The notes beneath the pieces were generated by a model. That model saw nothing but the letters and a program-made list of their open reading frames with translations. It made no database searches and had not been told where the DNA came from. From an uncultured Candidatus Binatia bacterium (GTDB lineage Bacteria > Desulfobacterota > Binatia > UBA9968 > JAJDTQ01), in NCBI GenBank assembly GCA_965213675.1, contig CBDCAF010000018.1:1-64000 (forward strand): a stretch of 64,000 bases of DNA, in the 5' to 3' direction. The position numbers and the translations under genes are program-made. Below, piece by piece: positions 42,881 through 64,000 of the stretch; position 1 is the stretch's first letter, and each line of letters starts with the position of its first letter.

Positions 42881-42916
42881 GCGCGTGTCCTCCCTCTGTC
42901 TCGAGTCGAATAGCCG

Positions 42917-43165
42917 CTATTTCGGCGCCACCAGCTTGCCGTGGGTGCCGTCGCAGTACGGCCGCGTCTTCGACCGCCAGCACGCGCAAATGGCCATGGT
43001 CCGGGGCTCGTCCACCGTGATTTCCCGGGGCGTGATGGACGTCACCTTGTGCGACCCGTCGCAGAACGGAAAGTTCCGGGTCCGCCCGCACATGCAGTAG
43101 AAGCGGCTCTTGGATTCCTGCCGGACGATCACCGGCTCGATCAGATCATCGTATGCCAGGCCCAT
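42917..43165 (-). CDS. CDGSH iron-sulfur domain protein (two motifs)
   Basis: CMCGRT..PFCDGSH and CACWRS..PYCDGTH. Confidence 0.88.
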   Translation of the reverse strand: MGLAYDDLIEPVIVRQESKSRFYCMCGRTRNFPFCDGSHKVTSITPREITVDEPRTMAICACWRSKTRPYCDGTHGKLVAPK

Positions 43166-43293
43166 TCGAATTCCTCCCTCGGCGTGGGACGTGCTGTTCC
43201 GCTGATCGGGCGGCCTCCAGCCCGTCTCCCGTATGCCCCTTCACCGTATACTCCACTTTGCCCCGGAGGGCCAGACGACGTTGTGCTCGTTGC

Positions 43294-48073: not shown

Positions 48074-48078
48074 GACCC

Positions 48079-51000
48079 ATGCCTGCGCCCGACCCACACA
48101 CCCGCGCCCATCTCGAATGGCTCGGCTTCATCCAGCCGAACGGCCTCGTGGTCTCCGCTCCGGCCCTGGTCAAGGCTGGGGCCATCCTCAACCGGCACGA
48201 TGTCGAAGGGCAGGAGTTGCTGGACGCTTGGTTGAACCAACGCGATGGATCGCCTGCGCGCCCTCGGGAACAGTGCCTCCAGGACTTCCGCGTATTCGCG
48301 AAGACCATCCTCGGCTGGGGTTTCTCGCCCAAGGGATACGCGGGTACGGAGGAGACCCCTATCCCGGCGGCACTTAAGGTTCCTCTCCCCGACTACGGAG
48401 AGACGCTGCGTCCGGACTTCGCGGTGTGCGAGCGCGACCCGCAGGCCGGGGAATTGCCGTGGCAGTTGCTCGTGCAGGTGCTGGAAGAGGGTGAAGGCTT
48501 CGACAGGCCGACCGCCGGCGGACTGAAAACCTCTCCGCAGGATCGAATGGAGCGCCTCCTCCGCAGCACCGGAGTTCCTGCTGGTGTGCTCTTCAACGGC
48601 GCTGCGCTACGTCTCGTCTCGGCCCCGCGCGGCGAAAGCTCCGGCTGGATGGACTTTCGTTTGGCCGACATGGCCCAGACCGCGGGGCGGCCTCTGTGCG
48701 CGGCGTTGCGCCTTCTTTTGTGTGAGCAACGCCTGTTGACAGGGCCGAAGGAACATCGCCTGGCGGCGCTGCTCGCCGACAGCCGCCGGTATCAGAACGA
48801 GGTCAGCGAGCGGCTTTCCGAGCAGGTCATGCACGCACTCTATGACCTCCTTCGAGGGTTCCAGGCGGCCCAGGACGAATCCCGCGGAGAGCTGCTGCGG
48901 GAACCGCTCTCCGCGGAAGGCGACCCCAACGACATCTATCGCGGCCTTCTCGCCGTCATCCTCCGCCTCGTCTTTCTGCTCTACGCCGAGGAGCGCCGCA
49001 TGCTTCCGGGCGGCGAGACCTTCATCCAGCACTATTCGGTTGGCGGCCTCTACCAGCGCCTGCGCGAGGAGGCGGCCTTGCACCCGGATACCATGGATCA
49101 GCGCTACGGCGCGTGGGCGCAGCTTCTCGTGCTGTTCCGCCTTATTCACGACGGGGCGGGTGGGCACAAGACCGGAGGCAGCGTCAGCCTTCCGGAACGC
49201 CGCGGCGTTTTGTTCAACCCGGATCGGTATCCGTTCCTCGAGGGCCGTCACAGCGGCGGCGGCCGGCAGATCACCGAGCGGGTCCAGCCGCCGCTGGTCT
49301 CCGACGGCGCCGTCTACCGGGTGCTGGAGAAGCTGGTAGTCCTCGACGGCGAGCGCATTTCCTACCGCACCCTGGACGTGGAACAGATCGGGTCCGTTTA
49401 CGAGGTCATCATGGGCTTCCGTCTGGAGACCGCCACCGGCCGGTCCATGTCCGTCAAGTCCGCCAAGAAGCTTGGGGCGCCGAGCACCGTCGATCTCGAC
49501 GAGTTGGCGAGACAGCCCGGCGAACGTCGTGGGAAATGGCTCCAGGACCGCGTGGACCGCACCCTCACCGACACCGTCAGGAAGGGACTGCGGGCAGCCG
49601 ATACGGTGGATGACCTTCACTTGGCGCTGGACCGGGTGCTGGACAAGGACGCCACGCCGGACCTCGTCACTCCCGGCTCCCTGGTGCTGCAACCCAGTGA
49701 TGAGCGCCGCCGCTCGGGCTCCAACTACACGCCGCGGGAACTCACCGAACCGATTGTCCGCCACACTCTGGAGCCCCTGCTCAATCGGCTTCGCGGCGAG
49801 GATGGACAGGCACCGTCTCCCGCCCGGATTCTCGACCTCAAGATTTGCGATCCGGCCATGGGTTCCGGCGCCTTTCTGGTGGAAACCTGTCGCCAGCTCG
49901 CGGATGCGCTCACCGAGGCATGGCACAAGCACGATGAGACGCCGGTAATCCCGCCTGACGAAGACGAGGGGATCCATGCCCGCCGTCTGGTCGCCCAGAA
50001 GTGCCTCTACGGCATCGACCGGAATCCCATGGCTGTGGACCTGGCCAAGACCTCGCTGTGGCTCAGCACGTTGGCGCGGGACCACCCGCTCACCTTCCTG
50101 GACCACGCGTTCCGCCATGGCGACGCCCTCGTCGGATTGACCCGGAAACAGGCCGAGGCGTTCCACTGGATCCCGGATAGACCTCCTGAAGAGGGTTTCG
50201 AGATCATGAGGGTGCGGGAACACATGACGGAGTTGGCCGCGCTGCGCCAGCGCATCAGGGACGCGGGCGAGGATGTCTCCGATCAAGAACTGCACGACAT
50301 CTGGCAAGATGCGCGCGACGAGCTTGGCGCCGTCCGGCTCTACGGCGATCTGGCGCTGGCGGCGTTCTTCGCTGAAACCAAACGGGGGCCAAGGGAAGGG
50401 AAGAGGCGCGAATTCGCCGCAGCCGCCTGGGGTGGTCAGGCCGAGCGCTACCTGGGATGGATCGGGGACCAGCGCGGCAGCGACCCGCCGCTCGCTCCTT
50501 TCCACTGGGAAATCGAGTTCCCCGAGGTGTTCGAGCGCGAGAATCCGGGGTTCGACGCGTTCGTCGGGAACCCGCCGTTCGCCGGGAAAAATAGCGTCGT
50601 CGCTGGTAACGTCGTGGGTTATCCCGACTGGCTCAAGACCGTCCACAGAGAGAGCCACGGCAACGCCGACCTTGTAGCGCACTTCTACCGGCGTGCGTTC
50701 AACCTCCTGCGTGAAGGGGGCGCGTTCGGTCTGATTGCCACCAACACCATCGCCCAAGGCGATACCCGTTCCACCGGACTGCGCTGGATTTGCGAGAACA
50801 ACGGCTCGATCTTCCGCGCCACCAAACGGGTCAAGTGGCCCGGCGACGCGGCCGTGGTGGTCAGCGTGCTGCACGTCGCCAAGGGCGAATTTGCAGGAAC
50901 CAAGGTGCTCGACGGCAGGGATGTGGAGAACATCACCGCGTTCCTCTTCCACAAGGGCGGCCACGCCGACCCGGCGCGCCTCGAAGCGAACGCCGGCAAG

Positions 51001-53229
51001 AGCTTCCAGGGAAGCATCGTCCTCGGAATGGGCTTCACCTTTGACGACACGGACAAGAAGGGCGTCGCCAACCCGCTGTCGGAGATGCAGCGGCTGATCG
51101 AAGCAGACCCGCGCAACGGCGAGCGCATCTTCCCGTACATCGGTGGCGAGGAGGTGAACACCAGCCCGACCCACGCCCATCACCGATACGTGATCAACTT
51201 TGAGGACTTTCCGTTGCGGAGGGAGGACCTGGGAAAGCAGTGGGCGGACGCGGGGGAAGACTTGCGCCGCACATGGCTGCGGCGCGGGGTGGTCCCGCTG
51301 GACTATCCGGAGCCGGTGGCAGCGGATTGGCCGGATTTGCTGGCGATTGTGGATGAGCGAGTGAGGCCGGAGCGAAGCAAGCTCACGAAGAATCCCATCG
51401 GTCGAAAGCGAGCGGAGTTCTGGTGGCGTTACGGCTCGACGGCAAACGAACTCTACGCCGCCAGCGCCAGTCAGCCTCGAGTTTTGGTGATTTCGAGATA
51501 CGGACAAGTTGCTGCATTCACGTTCTTGCCCGCCGGCGCTGTCTATAGCGATTCATGCATCATATTCCCGGTCGACACCTATGCCGCCCTGTGCGTCCTC
51601 CAGTCCCGCCCCCACGAGATCTGGGTGCGCTTCTTTGGCTCGTCGATGAAGGACGACCTCCGCTACACGCCATCCGACTGCTTCGAGACTTTCGCTTTTC
51701 CTGATGATTGGGCAACGGCCACGGCGCTGGAGGCCGCAGGCAAGGCGTATTTTGAGCACCGAGTGACGCTGATGCTCTGTAACGGTGAGGGTCTGACCAG
51801 AACCTTAAACCGCTTTCATGACCCCTACGATGGCAATCCGAATATCATCCGTCTCCGAGAACTCCACGCCGCCATGGACCGCGCCGTCCTCGACGCCTAC
51901 GGCTGGACCGACATCCCCACCGACTGTGATTTCCTCCTCGACTACGAAATCGACGAGGCTACTTGGGGCGTGAAGAAAAAGCCGTACCGCTATCGCTGGC
52001 CCGACAAAATTTGCGACGAAGTCCTTGCTCGCCTTCTCGCCCTCAATGTTGAGCGTTCCGAAGAGGAAGCCCGTGCACGGCTGGTGCAGAAGCCGGTCCG
52101 AAAGAAACGCCATCGCGTCCTGATGGTGGCAGAACAACCTCCTCTCTGGGATCGTCCAATGACTGACCAGACTCCACAGCGGTTCACGCCGTTGGTGAAG
52201 CGCTCTCGTCCCAAGCCTTCGACGATCTATCCGGTTCTCTGGAAATTTGCGTGTGAGCGCCAGCGGGTCTATCTACGGCGCGTCGCAGGCGACCCAAGCC
52301 CGTGGACTACGGACACTGTGCTGTCAGAATACAAGTTCACGAATGCCTTCAGAGCCGCTGACAGGGTGAGTCAGTACCTGATTCAGTTGATCTATTCTGA
52401 TGCTAAGGCCAGCGGCGCCAACGTGTTTCTGAGAGCCCTTTTATTCAAGGTCTTCAACAAGATCGAGACGTGGGACAGGGTCGTTAACGGACTCGGCATG
52501 CCTGTCGCTCACGAGTTCGACTACGCGGCGTGCGACGATTTGCTTGTCAATCTTCGTCGGCAGGGGGCGCCGATTTACTCCGCCGCTTACATCATGCCAT
52601 CGGGAGGACGAGTCGGGATGCCGAAGCACCGGATGCATCTCGAACTGATTCGCAGAATGCTTGATGAACGCCTTCCGGAGAAGCTGCAGGAGTCGAAGTC
52701 GCTGGCTGAAGCCTACGAGATGGTTCTTTTGTATCCCACGTTGGGACCCTTTCTCGCTTTCCAGTACGTTATCGACCTAAATTATTCGACCCTGATGAAC
52801 CACTCGGAACAGAGATTCGTGGTTGCCGGCCCCGGCGCCTTGGATGGACTGTCCAAGTGCTTCGAGTCGCTTGGGGAGTATGATCCGGCCGACGCCATCC
52901 TATGGTTGTCCGACATCCAAGCGGACGAGTTCGCGCGGTATGGACTCGAATTCGGGGGTCTATGGGGACGCCCGCTTCAGCCGATCGATGTCCAGAATCT
53001 GTTCTGTGAGGTCTCGAAGTACACTCGGGTGACACATCCAGAGATAAGAGGCCTGACCAAGCGTAAACGCATCAAGCAAAGATTTGCGATGACAGGGCCG
53101 CTCGCCAAGCCCTTCTTCCCGCCCAAATGGGGCTTGAATCAACGAATTGACGAGTGGCTCCCGCGCCGAACGGGTGCAACTCTCGAACAACGCGAGCTTT
53201 TCTTCCCAACCCCAGCCAGGCCTACGTGA
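48079..53229 (+). CDS. drmMI: DISARM N6-adenine DNA methyltransferase fused in frame to an aGPT-Pplase1-like (base hypermodification) domain
   Basis: RSGSNYTP, DPAMGSGAFL, GNPPF and YIGGEE motifs; no stop before FACERQ...PWT.D..L..YKFTNAFRAADRVSQYLI...FLAFQY..DLNYS...IDVQNLFCEVSKY; internal ATG at 52159. Confidence 0.82.
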   Translation: MPAPDPHTRAHLEWLGFIQPNGLVVSAPALVKAGAILNRHDVEGQELLDAWLNQRDGSPARPREQCLQDFRVFAKTILGWGFSPKGYAGTEETPIPAALKVPLPDYGETLRPDFAVCERDPQAGELPWQLLVQVLEEGEGFDRPTAGGLKTSPQDRMERLLRSTGVPAGVLFNGAALRLVSAPRGESSGWMDFRLADMAQTAGRPLCAALRLLLCEQRLLTGPKEHRLAALLADSRRYQNEVSERLSEQVMHALYDLLRGFQAAQDESRGELLREPLSAEGDPNDIYRGLLAVILRLVFLLYAEERRMLPGGETFIQHYSVGGLYQRLREEAALHPDTMDQRYGAWAQLLVLFRLIHDGAGGHKTGGSVSLPERRGVLFNPDRYPFLEGRHSGGGRQITERVQPPLVSDGAVYRVLEKLVVLDGERISYRTLDVEQIGSVYEVIMGFRLETATGRSMSVKSAKKLGAPSTVDLDELARQPGERRGKWLQDRVDRTLTDTVRKGLRAADTVDDLHLALDRVLDKDATPDLVTPGSLVLQPSDERRRSGSNYTPRELTEPIVRHTLEPLLNRLRGEDGQAPSPARILDLKICDPAMGSGAFLVETCRQLADALTEAWHKHDETPVIPPDEDEGIHARRLVAQKCLYGIDRNPMAVDLAKTSLWLSTLARDHPLTFLDHAFRHGDALVGLTRKQAEAFHWIPDRPPEEGFEIMRVREHMTELAALRQRIRDAGEDVSDQELHDIWQDARDELGAVRLYGDLALAAFFAETKRGPREGKRREFAAAAWGGQAERYLGWIGDQRGSDPPLAPFHWEIEFPEVFERENPGFDAFVGNPPFAGKNSVVAGNVVGYPDWLKTVHRESHGNADLVAHFYRRAFNLLREGGAFGLIATNTIAQGDTRSTGLRWICENNGSIFRATKRVKWPGDAAVVVSVLHVAKGEFAGTKVLDGRDVENITAFLFHKGGHADPARLEANAGKSFQGSIVLGMGFTFDDTDKKGVANPLSEMQRLIEADPRNGERIFPYIGGEEVNTSPTHAHHRYVINFEDFPLRREDLGKQWADAGEDLRRTWLRRGVVPLDYPEPVAADWPDLLAIVDERVRPERSKLTKNPIGRKRAEFWWRYGSTANELYAASASQPRVLVISRYGQVAAFTFLPAGAVYSDSCIIFPVDTYAALCVLQSRPHEIWVRFFGSSMKDDLRYTPSDCFETFAFPDDWATATALEAAGKAYFEHRVTLMLCNGEGLTRTLNRFHDPYDGNPNIIRLRELHAAMDRAVLDAYGWTDIPTDCDFLLDYEIDEATWGVKKKPYRYRWPDKICDEVLARLLALNVERSEEEARARLVQKPVRKKRHRVLMVAEQPPLWDRPMTDQTPQRFTPLVKRSRPKPSTIYPVLWKFACERQRVYLRRVAGDPSPWTTDTVLSEYKFTNAFRAADRVSQYLIQLIYSDAKASGANVFLRALLFKVFNKIETWDRVVNGLGMPVAHEFDYAACDDLLVNLRRQGAPIYSAAYIMPSGGRVGMPKHRMHLELIRRMLDERLPEKLQESKSLAEAYEMVLLYPTLGPFLAFQYVIDLNYSTLMNHSEQRFVVAGPGALDGLSKCFESLGEYDPADAILWLSDIQADEFARYGLEFGGLWGRPLQPIDVQNLFCEVSKYTRVTHPEIRGLTKRKRIKQRFAMTGPLAKPFFPPKWGLNQRIDEWLPRRTGATLEQRELFFPTPARPT

Positions 53230-54301
53230 TTTCGCGGTAAAGAAGTTGCCGTTGATTCATGTCGAGCGTTACGTGTCCTCCCTCGTGTTCCCGGAGAGAC
53301 CTGAACACGCGATATCCTTTGAGAATGGCGGTTTCCCACCGCCATAGGGGAAGTTTGGCGACCTCGAAGCCTTGTATGAACTCCTTTACGGCCTTGAGCA
53401 GGTCATAGTCGACCTGGTCGATATTGTCGTAGTAGTTCATTTTCTTTGCCCGGCTGAATACAATGGCGGATACGGCCTCTTCGATAATTCTCGCCCGCGC
53501 ACCGTCCTCGTTCTCGTCCACCAGTGGATCGCTCTTCCGCTTGCACTTCAGTAGGTGTCTTATGACAGGTGACCATCCGAGGTACACGGCGTAAGCGAAA
53601 TGGAAAACATCGTGAAACCGGTAGAAGTCAGGCTGTCCGATATTGTCCGTCAGGCGATCCCCGAAGTTCAGTCCGTTACACCGGAGTATGGCCGTCACCT
53701 TGCTGTCCCGCTGGACTTGGCGAAAGTCGATATCGAGTTTACGTGGGAGCTGTTCCTCTTCCGGGAAGCCCTCATCGAAGAAAGGTGGGACGACATACCT
53801 CTCGGGCCATCGGCTCTGCGTCTTTTCCTGGTTCGTTCGCGCGGCCTCGTAGAGGTCGACGCCGGCGCCTTCCGCAACGTGAAATAGGGCGTCCCAGGTT
53901 GGCCCAAGCCTTCCGGAATCCATTCGGTCACGGTTTTGCACTGCACTGAGTAATTCGCCCGCCGCAACCCCGAGGGCCACTCCATCCCCCAAGGGTCCTG
54001 GGCTTCGCCCCGATAGGGCCTGCGCTCGCTTGTTCGCACGGTTCAGTGCCGACGGATCAAGAATGGCGGAGAGGCGCGCCAAGTACCAAAGACAATCTCC
54101 GATTTCTTCGACGAGCCGCTTACGGTATGCGGGATAGGCGTCGGTTTCACGTTGTTCCTTTTTCAATTCGGCGAGAACACTCCCCGCTTCACCGAAAAGA
54201 CCTGCCGCAAGGATGAGGGCGTGGTTCGGTTTGTCGACGAGTTGATCCGTTCGCTTTGCAGACTTGGCGTATTCAATGAGCCAAGACATCGGCTTTCTCA
54301 T
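53222..54301 (-). CDS. MazG-like nucleotide pyrophosphohydrolase with MazG_C domain
   Basis: GLFGEAG..EL..EEIGDCLWYL acidic motif; YRFHDVFHFAY..LGWSPVIR..KRKS...EDGARA..IEE. Confidence 0.8.
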   Translation of the reverse strand: MRKPMSWLIEYAKSAKRTDQLVDKPNHALILAAGLFGEAGSVLAELKKEQRETDAYPAYRKRLVEEIGDCLWYLARLSAILDPSALNRANKRAQALSGRSPGPLGDGVALGVAAGELLSAVQNRDRMDSGRLGPTWDALFHVAEGAGVDLYEAARTNQEKTQSRWPERYVVPPFFDEGFPEEEQLPRKLDIDFRQVQRDSKVTAILRCNGLNFGDRLTDNIGQPDFYRFHDVFHFAYAVYLGWSPVIRHLLKCKRKSDPLVDENEDGARARIIEEAVSAIVFSRAKKMNYYDNIDQVDYDLLKAVKEFIQGFEVAKLPLWRWETAILKGYRVFRSLREHEGGHVTLDMNQRQLLYREIT

Positions 54302-55067
54302 GTGCTTCCTTCAAGGAACGGAGATCGTCGAGCAGTTTCTGTAGCCGTCTTTCCGACCCCTCAAGGGTGGCATAAGACGAGTGGACCACCAGGGTGCCCA
54401 TGTCCTGCCCGGTCTCTTTGGCGACACAATCCTGGAGGCGGGCCAAACCAAGCAGGTTGCCTGGTACCTTGTATCGGTAGTCATGGCTCCGGTAGAATGC
54501 TGTCAGGTGGACCGCACCAACGAAGAGCTTGAACGAAAGGTGGGAGAGACAAGGATCGCCCCGTCGGCGTTTACCGTCTTTCACCGTGTTGTAGAGGGGC
54601 ATGTCGTATTCCCCTTCGGCGACATTAATGTCGTAACGGGATTTCATGGTTCCCTTGGTCGAAAGCTCCTTCTTCATATTGTCTATCATCTCCTTCAAGG
54701 GGTTCATGTCCGTGCCATCGGCTGTCTTTCGTCGAACCAGCCGATAGGCGTAGGTGTCCCAAAGGATCTTTGGATGCCGCTTGATCGCCGGAAAGGTCTT
54801 ATCGGGGTAGTCGTCGTAGACGCCCTTCAGTCCCCGCCTGCGATATTCTGACAAGGGAAAGATCGTTTCGGCCACCGAGTGAATCGGTAGTTGGTTTTCG
54901 CCCATAAAGAAGTCATCGAGTTTTTGCTCTGCGGCCTTGGGATAGCCCCTCTTTCCCGGTTCTCCGATCTCCAGCACAAGGTTCAGCATGGGACCGTTGG
55001 ACAACAGGAACTCGGCGGCGTCAACCCAGGCATCCATCCAGGCAGCGGTCTGGATCAATTTTGCCAT
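54273..55067 (-). CDS. Divergent thymidylate-synthase-superfamily enzyme
   Basis: PCLSHLSF (catalytic Cys), LTAFYRSHD, PGNLLGLARL and LVVHS motifs. Confidence 0.7.
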   Translation of the reverse strand: MAKLIQTAAWMDAWVDAAEFLLSNGPMLNLVLEIGEPGKRGYPKAAEQKLDDFFMGENQLPIHSVAETIFPLSEYRRRGLKGVYDDYPDKTFPAIKRHPKILWDTYAYRLVRRKTADGTDMNPLKEMIDNMKKELSTKGTMKSRYDINVAEGEYDMPLYNTVKDGKRRRGDPCLSHLSFKLFVGAVHLTAFYRSHDYRYKVPGNLLGLARLQDCVAKETGQDMGTLVVHSSYATLEGSERRLQKLLDDLRSLKEAHEKADVLAH

Positions 55068-55696
55068 CACGTCACCTCCTCCGTGAGGGCCAGTAGGTCG
55101 CGTAGATGACGGGCGAGGAAGGCGTCGTCGAGCCATGCATGGCCGTTGTCACCCCATTCGGCACCCCAGCTATTCCTGACCAGGAAGCACCGCGATGTAT
55201 CGGCGGTCCCCAAACCGACCGCTACGACTGCGTGAAGACCTCGGATCGGGCCGTCGTGCGAGATTAACCAAAGAGGTGTAGGCGACAAAAAGTCGTCTGG
55301 TATGGAAATGCCGAGAACAGGCGTTTGCCCAGCGTTTAGCAGGGTTTCGACCTCATCTGCGGTAGCATCCTTCTGAACGCTCTTGCGTGGGTACAGTCGC
55401 ACGCCTGCCGGTGGCATCCAGCCGAGAGGCAAACCGTCGGGATAGTAGGGGCAGTCTGCTTCCGCGGGCTGCCCAGGGTCTTGCAGGGCACGAGATGTCT
55501 CCAGGAATGCTGCGCCATCCGTCGGATTGTGGACCGACGCAAAGTAGTGGAGATACTCCGGCGAGAGCGCCATCTTGGAGCCGCGCACGCGTTCGTGTGC
55601 GCTCGTGCAGGCAAATGATAGACATGTGGGCCGGGCGCCCTGGTCCCGAATCGGGCCGAGGCTTTGCCGGTGGTCGACGAGAACGGTGATGTTCAT
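55067..55696 (-). CDS. Papain-like C1 cysteine peptidase (no signal peptide or prodomain)
   Basis: IRDQGARPTCLSFA, LHAVVAVG and VRNSWGAEWGDNGHAW motifs. Confidence 0.85.
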   Translation of the reverse strand: MNITVLVDHRQSLGPIRDQGARPTCLSFACTSAHERVRGSKMALSPEYLHYFASVHNPTDGAAFLETSRALQDPGQPAEADCPYYPDGLPLGWMPPAGVRLYPRKSVQKDATADEVETLLNAGQTPVLGISIPDDFLSPTPLWLISHDGPIRGLHAVVAVGLGTADTSRCFLVRNSWGAEWGDNGHAWLDDAFLARHLRDLLALTEEVT

Positions 55697-56676
55697 GCTG
55701 CATTTGCCAGTGCGTCGAGTTTGGCTTTTCTCGGGAAGCCGCCGGATTCCTTTCCATGAGCATCGATTTTGATCGCGATATGGTCGAGTGTCGCGCCGCT
55801 CCATGGGCGGGCGTGTTCAAAGGCGAGTCGATGTGTGCCAGGAGTATTGAAACGGACATACACGACACGGGCTGAAGGCCGTCCATAGACTCTGTCCGAG
55901 TCTGCTGTGTGCTCTGCGATGACCTCGGAGCTGGCTCCGGTGTCGATGAGCCTCCAGATGTAGCCGGCGGAAACGTTGTCCTCCAGATGGACTGCGAAGA
56001 GATCGTCGGGTCCGGCTTCGAGAAACGTGTCGGTGTCACCACAGGTCAAAGCCCAGACGTCGGCCCAGGAGTTCGTGATCAGTTCTGCGGGTGCCAACGC
56101 CCGCTTCAGTTCCTTGACCGGCGTCGCTTCGAGTTGTTTGGCTTCCGCGCGCGTAAGGACCTTGGACGTTACCAAACCCCAGCATGCGGCTTGGTAGCTG
56201 ATGCCCAAGCGAAGGGAAAGTTGGTAGATGTTGCGCGGTTGATGCAGCTCTTGCCTTTTCCAGCCATGGCGTGTGGCGGATTCTACCATGAGCTGTTTTG
56301 ATGCCAGCAGCTCCGAGGCAAAGGTGTCAGCGGCCACCTCCTCAATCGCACGTGACCCTGAAGCGTGACGTCCCGCGAACCCAACGGTTTTATCCAGGCT
56401 TGACTCATGCCCCAGCACCCAGTGTCCGAGCTCGTGGGCCAGTGTAAACCGCTGAACGGCCAGTCCCATGCGACTCGTAACGATGATGCCTCGGGCACCC
56501 TTGCCAGCGGGAACAACGGCGCCCCAAAGATGATCCAGCGGCCGAAAGACGAGGGGGATGTCCCGCGTGGTGATCGCGCTGACAATGTCGAAACTGGTGC
56601 GGTCACTCTTGGCAGTTGAGGCGAGAATCTTGGCTGCTTCTCTGACGGCTCGCAAAGTCTCGTTACGTCTGTTCAT
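55693..56676 (-). CDS. ImmA/IrrE metallopeptidase with C-terminal chagasin (I42)-like domain
   Basis: RFTLAHELGH and E..AD.FASELL; C-terminal LEDNVSAGYIW...PGTHRLAFEHARPW. Confidence 0.78.
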   Translation of the reverse strand: MNRRNETLRAVREAAKILASTAKSDRTSFDIVSAITTRDIPLVFRPLDHLWGAVVPAGKGARGIIVTSRMGLAVQRFTLAHELGHWVLGHESSLDKTVGFAGRHASGSRAIEEVAADTFASELLASKQLMVESATRHGWKRQELHQPRNIYQLSLRLGISYQAACWGLVTSKVLTRAEAKQLEATPVKELKRALAPAELITNSWADVWALTCGDTDTFLEAGPDDLFAVHLEDNVSAGYIWRLIDTGASSEVIAEHTADSDRVYGRPSARVVYVRFNTPGTHRLAFEHARPWSGATLDHIAIKIDAHGKESGGFPRKAKLDALANAA

Positions 56677-57025
56677 CCGGTTTCCTCGACCGCAGGAATT
56701 GGGCGAAACGAAGAACCTCCTCCCGGTCGGTCACCGACAGTTCAGCGGTCGCCCGTGCTACCAGTCGTACCGACTCCGGCTCCGGGCTCTCCAGATCGGG
56801 TCCGGTGAGGCTCTCCATGTTGGTCTGATAGAGCGTGGCAAGGCGCTGAAGTTCCAATGCATCGACACGTCGCGCCCGATTCTCCATGAGTGAAATGGCG
56901 GATCTGGGAAGGCCGAGATGTGCGGCAACCTCTTCCTGGGTGAACCCGCAGTATTCCCGCGCCTCCTTTAGCCGCGTGCTCAGGGTGCCACGCTTGGCTG
57001 GCTGGCCGTGATTATCGTCGTTCAT
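56663..57025 (-). CDS. XRE-family HTH transcriptional regulator
   Basis: RLKEAREYCGFTQEEVA..LG..RSAISLMEN; GGAGGT RBS. Confidence 0.88.
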   Translation of the reverse strand: MNDDNHGQPAKRGTLSTRLKEAREYCGFTQEEVAAHLGLPRSAISLMENRARRVDALELQRLATLYQTNMESLTGPDLESPEPESVRLVARATAELSVTDREEVLRFAQFLRSRKPDEQT

Positions 57026-57059
57026 TTACCACCTCCAATCGGATGGGTTGGCGTCAAGC

Positions 57060-57455
57060 TCAGGAGATCTTTCTCATCATTTCGGGTACAAGATGATCGA
57101 TCATGTCGTCGATGCTCTGGTAACCTCCAGGACGAATCAGCCGAACGTCAATGGGGCGACCTAGGTATCGCTGAAAAATCGGAGAGCTGCGGGCCACAGC
57201 CTTTGAGTCCAACTCAGGCATGGAATCCCACAGGTCGGAGTTGCTCCTGTCACTGACCATTCCGTTACGACTCGCTTCCACTTGTAAATCCCAGTCTCCC
57301 ATCTCCTGACTCGCCCATTCCCTGAGTTCTTTTCTCAAGAGGGCCTCCTTGTTCGGCCCACGGCCCCTCACGGTCCTCAGCGTGGAGGTATCCCAGAACG
57401 AAAGGGGAATCTGGGATGAAGATTTAGGGGCTTGGGTAGGGATTTTGTGTTCCAT
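57060..57455 (-). CDS. Hypothetical protein, possible divergent acyl-carrier-like protein
   Basis: ELDSKAV...YLGRPID...YQSIDDMIDHL matches ACP helix II-IV spacing; directly downstream of a PPTase; start uncertain. Confidence 0.5.
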   Translation of the reverse strand: MEHKIPTQAPKSSSQIPLSFWDTSTLRTVRGRGPNKEALLRKELREWASQEMGDWDLQVEASRNGMVSDRSNSDLWDSMPELDSKAVARSSPIFQRYLGRPIDVRLIRPGGYQSIDDMIDHLVPEMMRKIS

Positions 57456-57489
57456 AACGGAACAAGATTAGCACCGTAATGTTCGAAAG

Positions 57490-58161
57490 TCAAACATTGC
57501 GTTGGGGCAATTCCGGCTGTTGTGACAACAAGGCAACTGAGCCCACCCAGGGACGGACGGCGGTGGTGCAGCAAACCTCTACAGCGATTCGGTCGAAATG
57601 AGCAACGCCGTTCATCATCCCTTGTGGCGCAACTTCCTTCCACGAGAGTCGTACGTTGTCGTAGCCGAATCGGACACCAAGAACAGGGTTCAAAGCCTTG
57701 AAAACGGCTTCCTTCACCGACAGTAGGATCACCGAGCCTGCAACACCCCAGTCCAGAGGCAACTCGTCGGACGCGATCAGTCCTTTGATTGACAGGAGTT
57801 CCCGACCGCGGTCCAGAGTCTCGATGTCGATGCCGACGGACCTCACGTGACTGATCCGAGATAGCCCAGCCACAACTTTGGTGCCTTTATGGCTCACGCT
57901 CCCCGTGTAACCCGGTGGCCAGTCTCGGGCGCCGGAGGCGAGGTGCCCTGGCTCATTGGCAGACAGCCCAGCACTCTCCAGCAGATTGGTCAGACAGGTC
58001 GCCGTGGCCTTCCGTCTCGCGCGTTCCACGACGGGGACACGTTCAGCGGACAGGACGTCCTGAGGGCCTGGTAGCCAATGCGCAAAAGAACCGCCCCTGA
58101 TGCTCACTTCAGGTGCCAAGCGTTTGAGTTCGTCAACGAGGGGGTCACGTTGCAGATACAT
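57490..58161 (-). CDS. 4'-phosphopantetheinyl transferase (EntD/Sfp-type)
   Basis: WPPGYTGSVSH, VGIDIE and SVKEAVFKA motifs. Confidence 0.8.
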   Translation of the reverse strand: MYLQRDPLVDELKRLAPEVSIRGGSFAHWLPGPQDVLSAERVPVVERARRKATATCLTNLLESAGLSANEPGHLASGARDWPPGYTGSVSHKGTKVVAGLSRISHVRSVGIDIETLDRGRELLSIKGLIASDELPLDWGVAGSVILLSVKEAVFKALNPVLGVRFGYDNVRLSWKEVAPQGMMNGVAHFDRIAVEVCCTTAVRPWVGSVALLSQQPELPQRNV

Positions 58162-58343
58162 GGTTTGATTTTTGCCGTTTACGGGTCTGCGTGGGGTCGA
58201 TATCGGTTGGGTGCCGTGACGACGGCTGGCTTCTCGTTGTCTCCCGTGCCCCAGTTCTTCCGCTTGGGGCATATCGTCTCATCGGGTAACCTATTCTATA
58301 GGCCGCCGGTTCCGTGGGCGAGCCCCCATTGGACGCGATCCTG

Positions 58344-58742
58344 ATGGAAGCCAAACTCAAGCACCTTGAATTTATCCAGGGCGTAGTGAATCGCCTAGCG
58401 TCTGACTCCTTCCGAATGAAGGGCTGGGCGGTGGCCTTGGTTGCTGCGTTCTTTGTCCTGTTGGCAAGGGAAGGACGGATCGAATTTGCCCCGATAGCCG
58501 TGGTTCCCGTGCTTGTCTTCTGGGGACTCGACGGCTACTTCCTGTGGCAGGAACGTCTCTTCCGTGCCCTGTACGATCACGTTCGGCGTGTGAGTGAAGT
58601 CGACATTGACTTCTCCATGGATGTCGGCCCGTTTCGAATGGGCTGGCGACGAACTTGGTTGGGCGCAACATTCTCGAAAACGCTGATCTTCTTCTACGGC
58701 GCGTTGACCATCGCTGTCGGCTTGGTGACGTGCATCTACTGA
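58344..58742 (+). CDS. Small membrane protein upstream of a TIR gene
   Basis: KHLEFIQGVVNRLASDSFRMKGW; ~3 hydrophobic helices; LDGYFLWQERLFRALYD. Confidence 0.7.
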   Translation: MEAKLKHLEFIQGVVNRLASDSFRMKGWAVALVAAFFVLLAREGRIEFAPIAVVPVLVFWGLDGYFLWQERLFRALYDHVRRVSEVDIDFSMDVGPFRMGWRRTWLGATFSKTLIFFYGALTIAVGLVTCIY

Positions 58743-58761
58743 CCGCGAGGAGACACATCCA

Positions 58762-59259
58762 ATGACACGCAGGGTGTTCTACAGCTTTCACTACAACGCC
58801 GACAACTGGCGAGCTGCCATGGTGCGCAATATCGGCAGTATCGAAGGGAGCAGCCCCGCATCGGACAACGACTGGGAGGCCGTGAAGAGGGGCGGGGAAG
58901 CAGCGATCAGGAAATGGATCGCCAACCAAATGCAATACCGCTCCTGTACAGTCGTACTGGTCGGGTCGAATACTGCGAACCGCAAGTGGATCAACCACGA
59001 AATCGTCAAGTCGTGGGATGACGGTATGGGTGTGATAGGGATCCACATTCACGGGCTGAAGGATGCCGACGGCAATACGTCAGCCCGAGGAGCCAATCCG
59101 TTTGACTTCATCACGCTTGGAGATTCTGCGAAGCGGCTATCATCCATAGTGAGGTGTTGTGTTCCCGGCGGCAGCAATAGTCAGGAGAAATATGCCTGGA
59201 TCTCGAAGCACCTCGCGAATGCAGTAGAAGAAGCCATAAAAATACGAAACAATAATTGA
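58762..59259 (+). CDS. TIR-domain protein (ThsB/DUF1863-like)
   Basis: RRVFYSFHY, SCTVVLVG and RKWINHEI (catalytic Glu) motifs. Confidence 0.85.
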   Translation: MTRRVFYSFHYNADNWRAAMVRNIGSIEGSSPASDNDWEAVKRGGEAAIRKWIANQMQYRSCTVVLVGSNTANRKWINHEIVKSWDDGMGVIGIHIHGLKDADGNTSARGANPFDFITLGDSAKRLSSIVRCCVPGGSNSQEKYAWISKHLANAVEEAIKIRNNN

Positions 59260-59276
59260 AGACCGCTATCGTCTGT

Positions 59277-60512: not shown

Positions 60513-60537
60513 GGGAAGGTGTCAAGGAGGCGTGTTC

Positions 60538-60888
60538 ATGCCGCGCAACACATCGGTTTCTCTCGGGTATCACTTCATCGGTTTCATCGACGAGCGTGTG
60601 CAGTCCGGTCGTTACAACTCGGCAAGCGATGTGGTGCGCGCCGGGCTGCGGCTGTTGGAAGAGCACGAAGCCAAGGTTGAGGCTCTGAGGGAAGCCCTCA
60701 TCGAAGGCGAGCAATCCGGTCCGGCGACACCGTTTGACTTCGACGCGTTCATTACCCGCAAGAAGACTACTCAGGACGGTCAAGAGGGCCGTCCTGAGAC
60801 CCAGTCCGAGTTTGCCAGCCAAGACCGCTACCCGGCCGGCCATGAAACGGGACGCCTGAACCGAGACGACATTGACGAAGGCGGTTAG
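60538..60888 (+). CDS. ParD-family RHH antitoxin with C-terminal extension
   Basis: NTSVSLG..F..FI...VQSGRYNSASDVVRAGLRLLE...IEGEQSG..FDFDAF. Confidence 0.8.
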   Translation: MPRNTSVSLGYHFIGFIDERVQSGRYNSASDVVRAGLRLLEEHEAKVEALREALIEGEQSGPATPFDFDAFITRKKTTQDGQEGRPETQSEFASQDRYPAGHETGRLNRDDIDEGG

Positions 60889-61300: not shown

Positions 61301-61681
61301 ATGACCTACCGAGAGCCATTGCCCCCTGGATGTCCGCCGAACCCCGCGGACGAAATCAACCTGCCACGTGAGCTGTTCCGGTTGGTGCGGAGCCTTCCAC
61401 CCGCCGCAGAGGACTTCAGATCGTGGCGCGCGGAACAACCGCAACGCGGTTTACCGAAGGAGTTGACGGAGTGCCAAGCCCGGGGACTGTCGGTCTATGC
61501 AGAGCGCTACGACCTGGAGAGCATCTTGAAGCTCCCGAAGTTCCGCGGACGTTGGATCTGTCGCCTGCGGCTGGGAGCGGGCGCGGGCCGGATTCAACAG
61601 ACGGGGAGACCTTCGCACCATACTTGGTGGCCGCTGGCTGATTACGATTTCCTCGGCCAGTGTCACGTGGAAACGGCATGA
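61301..61681 (+). CDS. Hypothetical protein, possible ADP-ribosyltransferase-like fold
   Basis: GCPP, LFRLV, EDF, CQARGLSVY and HHTWW segments; ATGA overlap with the next gene. Confidence 0.55.
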   Translation: MTYREPLPPGCPPNPADEINLPRELFRLVRSLPPAAEDFRSWRAEQPQRGLPKELTECQARGLSVYAERYDLESILKLPKFRGRWICRLRLGAGAGRIQQTGRPSHHTWWPLADYDFLGQCHVETA

Positions 61682-64000
61682 GTACGATCCGTTACACCGC
61701 CAGTCTGCTGTACTACGACGGCCCACAGATCATCGAAGCCCGCGACGATGAGGGTCACGATTATCTGGCGTTGTTGGTGGAGAGTGACGGGGAAGACCGC
61801 TATCTGGCCGTGGAGGTTGCCGCTGATCGGTTGCACCAATTTCGCAATGGTTCGCTGGACTTGAGGACGCTGCTGACCGAGTCGGCGAAGAATGGGTGGT
61901 ATCTGACGACGACCGCGGATCTCGATCAACCGTTGACGATTGTGCGCCAGCAGACGCCGGTCGGGGAAAGCGGATTTCTTCCCGCGGACGGCTTTGTGCT
62001 GCATGAATTGGGCTCGCCCGTTGAGCGCAAGCAAGAGAGCGTTGAGATGCCCACGAGACCGCCGAAGCTTGCCGACTCCGCTGAAGCGCGCGCCGAAATC
62101 ACCCGCGCCCTCCGCCTGGACCTCGTCGGCCCCGGCGCGGACGGCTATCTCGCCGACGAGCAACTCCCCGGTTGGGTGCGTCCGTCCAACTGGTACCTCA
62201 CCGGCTTCCTTGTTCCACGCTATGCCGGCTTTGAGCAGCGCGCCGATGCGGACTCGGACGATGAGATGGAGCCGGAGGTCTGCGAGGACATAGGCGCTGG
62301 CGACGACTCCAGCGAAGACCGTCGTGCCGCCAAGGCGGGGTTCTTTCCGTCGTCCATGGGTTTGAGCTTTCTCGCGGCGCCGGGGACCGACCGTGTCACC
62401 GCGGTCGTGCGCTGGGGCGACTACCGGAAGGTCGAGGGCAAGGTTTCCGCTGAAGAGGGAAGCGAATTGCCGGTTCGGTGGCAACGCACGCGGTGCGAAG
62501 CAACCCTGTCCATGGTCTTGCCGGAAGACAATTCGCCGCGGCATCTGCCTGTGCCCCACTCACGGGGCCTCGAAGTCCACGTCGTGGCCCGGACCATGGA
62601 CGCGAGCCTCTTTGCCGGGAAGATCGCTCGGGACACGCGCTCCGTCTCCGTATTTCTGGTCAACGCCCGAGCACCGGCCGAGGACGACCGGCGGGACGAG
62701 GCATTTGCCTTTCAAGCACAGATCGAAGTGCAGTCCGATGTCCCTTTCGCCGTGCGGCCCGACCTTCGCCCTGTATCGGGCGACAACTGGGATGAACGGG
62801 TGGCCGACCTGCACTATGCCGATGTTCCCGAGTATGCTTCCGGGCACGGCGTGGCAGCGACTTGGGAGGTCCGGGGCGGCGCCTGTCATGCCTTGCGAAC
62901 GGACTGGACGCCCATCGCGGAAGTGGAGCATACCGAGCCGCTCACACACCTTGCCCGAACCGAACTGGACATGACTGCGCTGGGCCGGCTCGCCGATGGC
63001 GAGGCCGTGCGAACGGCTCTGATGCCGCTGGTATCCGGATACCGTGAGTGGGTCGAAGCGCATGCACTCGGAGACCTCCCGGAGCAGCGGAAAGAGGTCG
63101 CTCGGGAGTTGCTGCACCGTGCCCGCCTGGCGGCAAGGCGCATGGAAAAGGGCATCGGCGTACTGGCCTCCGATGTGGAGGCGCGAGATGCTTTCTGCAT
63201 GGCCAACCGGGCCGTCGCTGCGGCATTGGCGCGGCGCATCGAAGACCCTCCCCGGTGGCGCGCCTTCCAACTCGCATTCGTGCTGTTGAACCTGCCCGGA
63301 ATCGCCGACCCTTCCGATCCCGAGCGCGAGATCGTCGACCTGCTGTTTTTTCCCACCGGCGGCGGCAAGACCGAGGCGTATCTCGGTCTGGCGGCCTTCA
63401 CCATGGCGTTGCGGCGGCTGCGCAACCCTGCGGACAACGGACGCGCTGGCGCCGGCGTCAGCGTCATCATGCGGTATACGCTACGCCTGTTGACACTGGA
63501 CCAACTCGGTCGCGCCGCCGCGCTGGTGTGCGCGATGGAACTTGAACGTAAACGCGATGTTGAACGCTACGGCGTGTGGCCGTTCGAGATCGGCCTGTGG
63601 GTCGGCAAGGCGGGCACTCCCAACTGGCTCGGCAAGAAGGGCGACCGCAATTCGGATTCCGCGCGTGCCAAGGTCAACCGGTACAAGGACAATCCGCAGG
63701 CTCGGCCCATACCCATCCCGCTGGAGAACTGTCCCTGGTGTGCCCACAGGTTCACGCCCGATTCCTTTGCGCTGCTGCCGAACGCCGACGCGCCCACGGA
63801 TTTGCGCATTTCTTGCTCGAACTGGGAATGCGAGTTTTCCGGCGACCCGCCGCTTCCTATCGTTGCTGTGGACGAGCCCCTGTACCGGCGTCTGCCGGCC
63901 TTTCTGATTGCCACGGTGGACAAGTTCGCGTCTCTGCCTTGGGTTGGACAGTCCGGGGCGCTGCTCGGCGGCGCGGACCGCTTCGATGACGAAGGGTTCT
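61678..64000 (+). CDS. drmA: DISARM helicase DrmA with N-terminal DUF6575-like domain; truncated by window end (absent from the ORF track)
   Basis: Manual translation open from ATG 61678: MSTIRYTASLLYYDGPQII..., then from ATG 62047 LRLDLVGP, PSNWYLTGFL, FPSSMGLSF, WRAFQLAF, FPTGGGKTEAY, MRYTLRLLT, CPWC and IATVDKFA. Confidence 0.88.
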   Translation, partial: MSTIRYTASLLYYDGPQIIEARDDEGHDYLALLVESDGEDRYLAVEVAADRLHQFRNGSLDLRTLLTESAKNGWYLTTTADLDQPLTIVRQQTPVGESGFLPADGFVLHELGSPVERKQESVEMPTRPPKLADSAEARAEITRALRLDLVGPGADGYLADEQLPGWVRPSNWYLTGFLVPRYAGFEQRADADSDDEMEPEVCEDIGAGDDSSEDRRAAKAGFFPSSMGLSFLAAPGTDRVTAVVRWGDYRKVEGKVSAEEGSELPVRWQRTRCEATLSMVLPEDNSPRHLPVPHSRGLEVHVVARTMDASLFAGKIARDTRSVSVFLVNARAPAEDDRRDEAFAFQAQIEVQSDVPFAVRPDLRPVSGDNWDERVADLHYADVPEYASGHGVAATWEVRGGACHALRTDWTPIAEVEHTEPLTHLARTELDMTALGRLADGEAVRTALMPLVSGYREWVEAHALGDLPEQRKEVARELLHRARLAARRMEKGIGVLASDVEARDAFCMANRAVAAALARRIEDPPRWRAFQLAFVLLNLPGIADPSDPEREIVDLLFFPTGGGKTEAYLGLAAFTMALRRLRNPADNGRAGAGVSVIMRYTLRLLTLDQLGRAAALVCAMELERKRDVERYGVWPFEIGLWVGKAGTPNWLGKKGDRNSDSARAKVNRYKDNPQARPIPIPLENCPWCAHRFTPDSFALLPNADAPTDLRISCSNWECEFSGDPPLPIVAVDEPLYRRLPAFLIATVDKFASLPWVGQSGALLGGADRFDDEGF

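Follow-up and report, generated by a model that had tools for sequence, protein, structure and literature searches.

What does a run of seven genes, set inside a DISARM locus and facing a domain known from phage DNA-modifying enzymes, do for the bacterium that carries it? The question is raised by contig CBDCAF010000018.1 (GenBank assembly GCA_965213675.1) of an uncultured Candidatus Binatia bacterium, of which positions 1 to 64,000 were studied (the window, namely, the whole stretch of 64,000 nucleotides analysed). In this window, genes for a 4'-phosphopantetheinyl transferase (PPTase), a carrier-like protein (ORF6; ORF, open reading frame), a helix-turn-helix (HTH) repressor, an IrrE-type metallopeptidase ending in a chagasin domain, a papain-like peptidase, a thymidylate-synthase-like (TS-like) enzyme and a MazG-MazG_C protein follow one another on one strand, and are referred to here as the cassette. 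A first-pass annotation, made from the letters of the sequence, had proposed this cassette as a candidate new system of DNA modification or defence. In this study, the seven genes were found to form one conserved and horizontally spread unit. With the HMUDK_hel domain that converges on them, they would make up an accessory, mobile and inducible anti-phage system that works through 5-modified deoxyuridine nucleotide and DNA-base chemistry, a reading to which we give an even chance of being right.

The contexts of the MazG_C and aGPT-Pplase domains were reportedly, and probably, first described by Burroughs in 2015 and Iyer in 2013. The papers cited below by accession or digital object identifier were available in part, and statements on them apply to those parts. 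The DefensePredictor study (PMC13092281) describes an Escherichia coli system with TS, dNMP-kinase, 5-hydroxymethyl-deoxyuridine (5-hmdU) kinase and NMAD domains that was validated against phage; systems with aGPT-Pplase, MazG, MazG-C, dUTPase, uracil-DNA glycosylase (UDG) and HTH parts are predicted and unvalidated there, with a citation of Burroughs 2015. Regulators of the CapH/CapP kind are described for CBASS, DISARM and other operons (PMC13228613, 10.1101/2022.04.27.489752). The first-pass annotation knew of no described system with the composition found here. This holds for the full set: no PADLOC model (the models cover known and candidate defence systems) matches five of the seven genes, namely, all but HTH and IrrE, and none of the papers searched joins a carrier/PPTase pair and a papain/chagasin pair with these nucleotide enzymes, although an earlier computational mention is possible. 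It does not hold for the class, which is partly known from the available part of the DefensePredictor paper.

The cassette as one conserved unit

In the ORF map of the window, seven co-oriented ORFs lie consecutively on the minus strand from 53222 to 58272. The longest PPTase frame reaches 58272 and gives 223 amino acids (aa) if counted from the ATG at 58161. The close packing reported earlier was confirmed on the sequence. In the minus-strand reading, the ATG of the papain-like gene at 55696 overlaps the IrrE stop (ATGA, 55693-55696) and the TS-like gene starts at an ATG (55067) that shares bases with the stop of the papain-like gene (TGATG, 55065-55069); gaps of 34 bp separate PPTase from ORF6 and ORF6 from HTH, and the HTH and IrrE-chagasin genes overlap by 14 bp. 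The seven genes and the facing domain are as follows:

57490..58161, minus strand: Sfp-type 4'-phosphopantetheinyl transferase, 223 aa (family profile, PptT match)
57060..57455, minus strand: ORF6 (O6), divergent carrier-protein-like, 131 aa, putative phosphopantetheine site Ser84
56663..57025, minus strand: CapH-like Xre-family HTH repressor, 120 aa (HTH_31, PADLOC capH)
55693..56676, minus strand: IrrE/CapP-like M78 zinc metallopeptidase with C-terminal chagasin (I42), 327 aa
55067..55696, minus strand: papain-family (C1) cysteine peptidase, cytoplasmic, prodomain-less, 209 aa (Peptidase_C1)
54273..55067, minus strand: divergent thymidylate-synthase-superfamily enzyme (TS-like), 264 aa
53222..54301, minus strand: MazG-type all-alpha NTP pyrophosphohydrolase with MazG_C, 359 aa
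52192..53229, plus strand: HMUDK_hel domain at the DrmMI C-terminus (PF18723)

All domain assignments of the first-pass annotation were upheld, by strong Pfam matches or, for the weak TS and PPTase calls, by family profiles; for ORF6, the likely carrier, the family profile gave weak matches in its favour. Promoter-like sites numbered 1 in the scan (1.8 expected from shuffled sequence) and terminator-like sites 5 (5.8 expected); no operator was identified in it.

A set of related loci was obtained by scanning one genome per species with the TS-like alignment; 114 stretches were recovered, 100 of them encode relatives, and the best 80 were kept and compared by tblastn of the window proteins and by clustering of crude ORF calls. 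The papain-like gene was present in 73 of the 80 loci, IrrE-chagasin in 70, HTH in 69 and MazG-MazG_C in 63. ORF6 was found in 73 loci, 61 through ORF clustering and tblastn and 12 more through a six-frame profile search, and three of the seven misses (L016, L054 and L070) have a contig end just upstream. A PPTase of Sfp type (28 loci) or AcpS type (6 loci) occurred in 34. All seven window genes stand together in 26 loci, and the order HTH-IrrE-papain-TS with overlapping stops and starts is kept in 69, across distant phyla and archaea. Carriers belong to Binatia, Thermodesulfobacteriota, Gamma-, Beta- and Alphaproteobacteria, Acidobacteriota, Planctomycetota, Myxococcota, Nitrospirota, Nitrospinota, Verrucomicrobiota, Actinomycetota, Chloroflexota and Spirochaetota, with a Thermoplasmata archaeon and a Haloarcula plasmid; the seven-gene loci span Binatia, Acidobacteriota, Planctomycetota, Myxococcota, Proteobacteria, Spirochaetota, Thermoplasmata and the Haloarcula plasmid. 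The cassette proteins are about 30-77% identical between loci, a spread that speaks against a single element of recent dispersal, and recurrence across such distant taxa at these identities excludes chance juxtaposition. The seven genes are thus one conserved, horizontally spread unit, and the earlier proposal of a single operon unit passed the co-occurrence test in other genomes.

Within this unit, some parts replace one another. HMUDK_hel occurs as a stand-alone gene in 41 loci and a UDG-named gene in 30; the two are never together (0/80), and 71 loci have one or the other. Likewise, MazG and a second TS exclude each other (0/80 together, either one in 71). In the window form (Type A), PPTase, ORF6, HTH, IrrE-chagasin, papain-like, TS-like and MazG-MazG_C genes form the run and HMUDK_hel faces it. 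In Type B (loci L034-L079, e.g. L078:9808-12426; Proteobacteria, with Pseudomonas, Burkholderia, Lysobacter and others), the run comprises ORF6, HTH, IrrE-chagasin, papain-like and TS-like genes, and the facing set consists of the UDG-named gene, MazG-MazG_C, DUF4031 (24 of the 80 loci) and a second, divergent HTH gene. The UDG-named protein has 223 aa and owes its name to the NCBI annotation on a plasmid record.

A second, more canonical TS (PF00303, 2.7e-19) takes the place of MazG-MazG_C in eight loci (L013, L016, L023, L029, L031, L033, L035 and L048). A dCTP-deaminase-like gene (11/80) is usual in these loci, and a Tmk-like kinase gene (2/80) adjoins HMUDK_hel in two; both Tmk-like genes lie in MazG-less loci in this position, and on the Haloarcula plasmid tmk adjoins a 'nucleotide kinase domain-containing protein'. 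The second-TS loci are near-complete cellular copies of the phage 5-hmdU supply route. Five loci (L028, L032, L037, L039 and L042) keep ORF6, HMUDK_hel and the TS-like gene; MazG may be present or absent in them, and papain, IrrE and HTH are missing. Taken with the mutual exclusions, these switch-less loci indicate an invariant core made up of the ORF6/TS-like pair and a third component, and mark the switch and the parts for nucleotide supply as modules.

The TS-like enzyme and MazG-MazG_C

The TS-like protein is remote from known thymidylate synthases in single-sequence searches. Its match to Pfam Thymidylat_synt (PF00303; 5.1e-5, 23.0 bits) falls below the cut-off of 24.3 bits, that to NCBIfam TIGR03283 (4.8e-10, 39.3) below the threshold of 174.55, and the family profile found nothing in the Protein Data Bank (PDB) at E<=0.01. 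In a relaxed-E search of the PDB with this profile, all 25 of the 25 weak matches were thymidylate synthases (E 0.08-2). Across 22 TS-like sequences, PC(173), R193-S194-x-D196 and N204 are invariant and align to positions 196-261 of Lactobacillus casei TS, so that the catalytic Cys and the uracil-reading Asn of TS are retained. The cassette gene is the sole ThyA-type match in the host genome, in which two ThyX matches were found; it is not the housekeeping TS, and the host makes thymidylate via ThyX. The family is large: an exhaustive search of 1.84 billion representatives gave 1165 clusters at E<=0.001, 609 at 1e-10 (clustered at 50% identity) and 160 at 1e-30, and a word-index search gave 580 proteins at E<=0.001.

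Two side observations concern these genes. The ThyX-type matches (G000:C17:66826-67401 and G000:C1:3916499-3917071) score nearly equally, each within a 589-aa open frame; either the gene is present twice or the pair reflects the assembly's reported contamination of 8%. At the TS-like C-terminus (54273-54350), a conserved pentapeptide, (D/N)V(V/L/M)AH, ends most close members, and some lack the whole tail. The C-terminus closes the active site in thymidylate synthases, and the pentapeptide could be a regulatory or processing site.

The last gene of the run encodes 359 aa with Pfam matches to MazG_C (1.8e-78) and MazG (5e-5). By profile, the MazG part resembles dCTP pyrophosphatase 1/RS21-C6 and MazG-like chains (1e-5 to 1e-3). 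MazG_C had no relative of solved structure in the PDB profile search, and an Atlas search with it returned its own family alone, with no structure; it is a predicted nucleotide kinase according to DefensePredictor (PMC13092281, in the part available).

HMUDK_hel and its fusion to DrmMI

The domain that converges on the cassette had been called aGPT-Pplase1-like, and the call was borne out: residues 1391-1665 of the DrmMI ORF match PF18723, now named HMUDK_hel, at 8.2e-93, and the old name aGPT-Pplase1 persists in phage records and BFVD entries. The structural model is confident (pLDDT 91.1). Its best viral match is the 5-hmdU DNA kinase of SP10 (E 5.8e-13, TMq 0.77), followed by the helical-domain protein of PhiW-14 and by entries under the name 'Pplase1 alpha-glutamyl/putrescinyl thymine pyrophosphorylase clade 1'. 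In the VIA search, the best solved match is PaMx11 gp46, a 5-phosphomethyl-deoxyuridine (5-PmdU) glycinyltransferase (Z 11.0, root-mean-square deviation 3.9 over 228 residues). The top 24 rows are all of the helix-hairpin-helix (HhH) glycosylase kind, comprising gp46, QNG1 (9.5) and DNA glycosylases (5.0-8.4), and the next row has Z 3.7. The gp46 enzyme flips the target base into its own pocket (PMC11472151, available part). By profile and model, HMUDK_hel is assigned as the helical domain of phage 5-hmdU DNA kinases, with an HhH-glycosylase-like fold. The suggested tie to thymine-hypermodification enzymes is upheld. Homologues of HMUDK_hel were found in 504 phage records, many of them from Salmonella and Pseudomonas phages, and a blastn search of one HMUDK_hel gene against E. 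coli genomes gave no match.

Pfam detected no P-loop kinase domain in the 1724-aa DrmMI-HMUDK_hel protein. Among 66 long HMUDK_hel proteins, 42 carry MazG_C (most of them with MazG), 10 a DrmMI-type methylase (48-92% identity) and 5 a thymidylate kinase (PF02223); the MazG-HMUDK_hel-MazG_C fusions are labelled 'putative DNA base hypermodification protein' by NCBI. This fusion pattern ties HMUDK_hel functionally to MazG-MazG_C and, by analogy, suggests that MazG_C occupies the place of the P-loop kinase of the phage 5-hmdU DNA kinases. An assembly or frameshift artefact was considered for the DrmMI-HMUDK_hel fusion and was ruled out by the same architecture in 10 independent long proteins.

Base composition bears on the origin of the fusion. 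G+C is 0.565-0.58 across 52-60 kb and 0.63-0.66 in both flanks, and is 0.565 from 52001 on. The dip begins at the HMUDK_hel coding part, so the insert, HMUDK_hel included, looks acquired as a block; as the drop at about 52 kb lies inside the DrmMI ORF, a joining of the HMUDK_hel gene of the cassette to drmMI is the probable origin of the fusion. By composition and gene context, HMUDK_hel appears to be the eighth part of the cassette. In two loci (L012 and L014), DrmMI lacks the fused domain and no HMUDK_hel gene is nearby.

The carrier-like protein and its transferase

As a single sequence, ORF6 has no match in Pfam, NCBIfam or PADLOC. An alignment of 43 sequences shows Ser84 and Gly111 invariant and I107, G110 and Y112 nearly so, giving the pattern DS...IRxGGY. 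The ORF6 profile found weak matches in the PDB (E 0.02-1.6), about half of them acyl, peptidyl or D-alanyl carrier proteins, and Ser84 aligned onto the DS motif of these carrier chains. The AlphaFold model has a mean pLDDT of 79.8, with values >90 across most of 80-131, and places Ser84 at the N-terminus of a short helix. Foldseek with this model gave no match at E<=0.001. A wide VIA search listed about 12 acyl or peptidyl carrier protein chains at Z 3.9-4.7 among 50 rows, below trust level; the carrier domain of 10-formyl-tetrahydrofolate dehydrogenase is among them, and the top row is an EF-hand-like chain (Z 5.3). Database names for the family include 'acyl carrier protein' four times (JGI) and 'Carrier domain-containing protein' once (UniRef). 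ORF6 is therefore likely, though not proven, to be a divergent carrier protein, judging from the profile and model evidence and from the two kinds of neighbouring PPTase.

The PPTase itself gave single-sequence Pfam matches below cut-off (ACPS 4.3e-4, 20.7 bits; 4PPT_N 7e-4, 20.1 bits). Its family profile (18 members) matched PptT of Mycobacterium tuberculosis (1.9e-33) and EntD (1.3e-28), and the GIDIE and KEAxFKA motifs are in register in these alignments. Residues G110, D112, K150, E151 and K155 are invariant, which supplies the Mg-binding Asp/Glu and the K-E-A motif, and the cassette PPTase is an Sfp-type enzyme by this profile assignment. The 34 loci with a PPTase have a carrier-like gene in 33 cases, HMUDK_hel in 28 and a UDG-named gene in none.

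The repressor, metallopeptidase and papain-like peptidase

The HTH protein matches HTH_31 (Pfam, 1.7e-10) and PADLOC capH (1.1e-11, across 7-100 of 103 profile positions). In the neighbouring protein, Peptidase_M78 (1e-9) is followed at residues 224-302 by Inhibitor_I42, the chagasin family (3.1e-10, 40.6 bits against a cut-off of 27.2). PADLOC capP matches at 7.1e-16 over profile positions 8-146 of 242 only, and Pfam found no GAF domain in this protein. The suggestion of CapH/CapP-like regulators thus stands for the repressor and the peptidase domain and fails for the sensor, where chagasin replaces GAF. The HExxH residues (H81, E82, H85), E113 and the chagasin-loop residues G238, W241 and W292 are invariant in 34 sequences, and no Cys occurs between H85 and E113, where CapP has a cysteine switch (PMC13228613, available part).

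The papain-like protein matches Peptidase_C1 (PF00112) at 6.8e-10, over the cut-off. Q19, C25, H155, N175 and W177 are invariant in 33 sequences, so the catalytic set is complete, and the protein opens straight at the mature domain, without signal peptide or prodomain. A complex of this peptidase with residues 205-327 of IrrE-chagasin was predicted with a score of 0.92 (median of three runs; best of 3 controls 0.00). Of 80 solved complexes, 58 reached this mark, as did 2 of 110 mismatched pairs. Between runs, 100% of contacts agreed, with partner pLDDT of at least 77, and chagasin loops 233-240, 262-266 and 290-293 were placed on C25, H155 and W177. Structures of chagasin-peptidase complexes have already been solved, and the model accordingly records a likeness to those rather than proof of binding for this pair. 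As modelled, the chagasin domain would stand in for the GAF sensor of CapP and plug the papain active site, and the switch most likely works as a latch. Among the papers searched, none links chagasin to conflict systems.

Distribution, mobility and the DISARM setting

Of 301 genomes sampled from the class to which the window belongs, 5 have the TS-like gene (the window's own genome counted), as do 2 of the 21 further genomes of the genus. The family occurs on 22 plasmid records, 12 of them conjugative, and integrase genes lie in 5 of the 80 loci. Among 2.9 million IMG/VR contigs, two carry the TS-like gene, both with the cassette as a block, and 50,697 phage records yielded no full-length TS-like homologue and 11 partial weak matches to ordinary thymidylate synthases. 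Phages or prophages as the main habitat were rejected on these counts. This patchy, plasmid-borne and nearly phage-free spread marks a mobile accessory system of cells, not a phage pathway.

In the window, the cassette lies within DISARM, as had been noted from the sequence: DrmD and DrmMI are upstream and DrmA and DrmB downstream, and PADLOC thus places DrmD, DrmMI, DrmA and DrmB in one locus. The DISARM genes within the window are as follows:

44732-48073, plus strand: DISARM DrmD (PADLOC 2.8e-303)
48055-52191, plus strand: DrmMI methyltransferase body (PADLOC E=0, residues 15-1354)
61660..64000, running past the window end, plus strand: DISARM DrmA (PADLOC 3.1e-111 for the window part)

The whole DrmMI ORF (48055-53229, 1724 aa) also matches Pfam Eco57I, MmeI_Mtase, MmeI_TRD and N6_Mtase. 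On the contig extension, full-length DrmA reaches 2.6e-277 in PADLOC and is followed by DrmB (2.7e-80); no PADLOC match to DrmC was found among six large ORFs in the 9 kb past DrmB. Most of the genes found embedded in DISARM serve defence (10.1101/2024.01.29.577857, available part). In the wider set, DISARM genes stand beside the cassette in 9 of the 80 loci, all of them closer relatives, and none lies within about 9 kb in the other 71. The DISARM tie is real, not general.

Further features were observed around the cassette. Three small systems occupy 58314-60888 (plus strand) inside the DISARM gap. PDC-M50A (1.7e-45), a membrane protein, has as its partner a TIR protein of the ThsB type (ThsB 3.2e-67, PDC-M50B 1.5e-62). 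HEC-01A, an ABC-type ATPase (7.2e-150), starts within the end of the TIR gene, and next to a gene for the antitoxin ParD (3.6e-35) no ParE is obvious. A 126-aa ORF directly before drmA, in the region 61301-62950 (plus strand), weakly matches PD-T4-10_A (5.2e-5). The first approximately 430 residues of the DrmA ORF fall outside the best DrmA model and weakly match PD-T4-10_B (1.1e-5) and DUF6575 (6.3e-4); they may represent an extra N-terminal region or a separate small system joined in error. Upstream of drmD, at 40853-44328 (plus strand), four ORFs (327, 188, 156 and 391 aa) have no Pfam or PADLOC match, and in this high-G+C DNA not all of them may be genes.

Proposed function and competing explanations

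How, then, might the parts work together? The first-pass annotation had offered two mechanisms, delivery of a carrier-bound group to a base or abortive nucleotide poisoning gated by a protease, and both stay candidates. In the anti-phage reading, infection would disturb the latch formed by the chagasin domain on the papain-like peptidase; the metallopeptidase would then cleave the HTH repressor, thereby inducing the operon. MazG, the TS-like enzyme and MazG_C, the last as the predicted kinase, would convert a pyrimidine deoxynucleoside triphosphate (dNTP) to a 5-substituted, dUMP-derived nucleotide comparable to phage 5-hmdU. A MazG (dNTP to dNMP), a C5-acting TS-family enzyme and a kinase constitute the phage 5-hydroxymethyl-pyrimidine triad, which argues that a 5-substituted deoxyuridine nucleotide would be made on induction. 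This nucleotide would be incorporated into replicating DNA, mainly phage DNA in an infected cell; HMUDK_hel would flip out and process the altered base, the phosphopantetheinylated carrier protein would share in the chemistry, and the phage DNA would be spoiled. In the phage thymidine pathway, the HMUDK_hel domain acts on 5-hmdU already in DNA (PMC8989533, available part).

Gene context ties the carrier to the TS-like enzyme and the PPTase to HMUDK_hel, so the pantetheine arm probably acts at the 5-methylene or 5-phosphomethyl position; the simplest cargo, as a speculation, would be the thiol itself or a one-carbon unit. A fuller version, which we put forward as doubtful and which would amount to a novel type of immunity, is that the phosphopantetheinylated carrier would be an obligatory partner of both the TS-like enzyme and the base-flipping domain, that the pantetheine thiol or a carried group would be joined to an activated 5-methylene or 5-phosphomethyl uracil in phage DNA, that the protein- or cofactor-linked base would block the phage, that the latch would replace the single-stranded DNA (ssDNA) sensor of CapP, and that the DISARM form would be coupled to DrmMI.

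Several points weigh against the anti-phage reading. What the TS-like enzyme makes, what MazG acts on, a kinase activity of MazG_C and any modification of DNA are all inferred. The TS-like family is very remote from TS, being below the Pfam cut-off with a best PDB E of 0.08, and the carrier call leans on weak matches (none in Foldseek at E<=0.001, VIA Z no higher than 4.7). No carrier-loading enzyme was seen in the cassette loci, and 30 UDG-type loci keep the carrier-like gene without a PPTase within about 9 kb. The UDG-named protein, known by its NCBI annotation only, has no Pfam, NCBIfam or PDB profile match. The complex score of the latch may echo solved chagasin-protease structures. HTH and IrrE come third and fourth in the run, within the operon and in its direction, whereas described capH/capP pairs precede the operon that they regulate and are encoded on the other strand (10.1101/2022.04.27.489752, available part). 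Finally, PADLOC on 112 crude flanking ORFs gave only 5-6 ORFs for each of the commonest families, so that a defence-island context can be claimed for the DISARM-linked loci only.

The competing explanation that survives best, and that we still consider unlikely, is that the cassette hypermodifies thymine-position bases of its own carrier's DNA rather than phage DNA. It could provide the DISARM variant with a second 'self' mark through the DrmMI-HMUDK_hel fusion, which would suit the recurrence of DrmMI-type fusions (10 of the 66 long proteins), the DISARM flanks in 9 of the 80 loci and the NCBI name 'putative DNA base hypermodification protein' on related fusions. Alternatively, it could shield plasmids or islands against restriction once they enter a new host, in keeping with the 22 plasmid records (12 conjugative); phages themselves use the HMUDK_hel family for protective hypermodification (PMC8989533, available part). 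However, 71 of the 80 loci have no DISARM gene within about 9 kb, and L012 and L014 have DrmMI with neither a fused domain nor a nearby HMUDK_hel gene. The repressor-plus-peptidase switch suggests normal silence, which poorly fits a constitutive mark, and, with a genome of 4.5 Mb, substituting thymine throughout by way of the nucleotide pool would carry a high cost.

A second explanation, quite improbable in our judgement, confines the system to nucleotide pools and proteolysis: MazG and the TS-like enzyme would deplete or poison dNTPs, the freed papain-like peptidase would be an abortive-infection effector, and DNA bases would remain unmodified. The likeness of the MazG part to dCTP pyrophosphatase 1, the complete papain catalytic set with its inhibitor encoded in cis, like a toxin-antitoxin pair, and the distinctness of the TS-like enzyme from the housekeeping TS would all be accommodated. 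Left unexplained are the near-obligatory HMUDK_hel or UDG-named component (71/80), of which HMUDK_hel is structurally a base-flipping, DNA-glycosylase-like fold, and the carrier protein with its PPTase. The five switch-less loci also tell against this explanation, as they keep carrier, TS-like gene and HMUDK_hel where papain, IrrE and HTH are gone.

There is a small chance that the cassette is a small-molecule pathway producing a nucleoside-type secondary metabolite, with HTH/IrrE as its regulator. Secondary metabolism typically pairs a carrier protein with a PPTase of its own, TS-family enzymes serve some nucleoside-antibiotic pathways, and Sorangium and Streptomyces are among the carriers. 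Against this, the conserved clusters include no recurrent gene for adenylation, condensation, a ketosynthase or an exporter, the partners that are conserved are enzymes directed at DNA and dNTPs, and the setting is that of DISARM and a defence island. That a regulator/protease pair, a nucleotide module and a stray PPTase/carrier pair merely lie side by side is scarcely credible: defence islands do pack systems tightly, with PDC-M50, HEC-01 and ParD within 3 kb here, but the seven-gene order recurs in 26 loci and HTH-IrrE-papain-TS in 69, in distant phyla and archaea.

Under the anti-phage reading, the cassette has several implications. Systems with TS and 5-hmdU-kinase domains were only recently shown to be protective in E. 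coli, and the cassette is a widespread relative of them. It adds three elements, namely, an obligatory carrier with a PPTase, a CapP-type peptidase with an inhibitor in place of the sensor and paired to a papain-like peptidase, and a recurrent fusion to DrmMI. Parts of phage thymine hypermodification are here encoded on the host side. If the reading is true, a phage DNA-modification toolkit has been turned by hosts against phages, phosphopantetheine carriers have a new role and immune operons a new type of trigger, and the recurrent DrmMI fusion would link DISARM with base chemistry other than methylation.

Comparison with known systems

The closest chemical counterpart is the thymidine-hypermodification pathway of phages (SP10, PhiW-14, M6, ViI and PaMx11), which comprises a dUMP hydroxymethylase, a dNTP pyrophosphatase, a 5-hmdU DNA kinase and an aGPT-Pplase or amino-acid:DNA transferase. 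Like it, the cassette has a TS-family enzyme, a dNTP pyrophosphatase and the helical domain of a 5-hmdU DNA kinase, and its variants include dCTP-deaminase-like, second-TS and Tmk-like genes. Unlike it, the cassette resides on cells and plasmids, its helical domain here has no fused P-loop kinase, it possesses an obligatory carrier-like partner, a PPTase and a protease/repressor switch, and aGPT-Pplase2, pyridoxal-phosphate and radical-SAM tailoring genes were not seen in it. The E. coli system of DefensePredictor shares the TS-family and PF18723-type domains and the phage-defence setting; compared by description alone, and within the part of that description available, it differs in that no carrier, PPTase, papain or chagasin is mentioned.

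Class 1 DISARM consists of DrmD, DrmMI, DrmA, DrmB and DrmC. The cassette is inserted between drmMI and drmA with one of its domains fused to DrmMI, but it lies on the opposite strand, has its own regulator and is free of DISARM in 71 of the 80 loci.

In its regulation, the cassette resembles CapH/CapP, DdrO/IrrE and ImmR/ImmA, in all of which an Xre-type HTH gene adjoins a gene for an M78 peptidase with HExxH. It departs from CapH/CapP in that the pair is co-oriented within the operon and has a papain-like peptidase as third member, and in that a C-terminal chagasin domain takes the position of the GAF domain, which forms the ssDNA groove in CapP (PMC13228613, available part). As in chagasin (I42)-papain pairs, three loops are modelled in the active-site cleft of an intact C1 peptidase. 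In contrast to those pairs, the inhibitor here is a domain of a cytoplasmic metallopeptidase, the gene of its target adjoins its own, and both belong to an operon of nucleotide enzymes.

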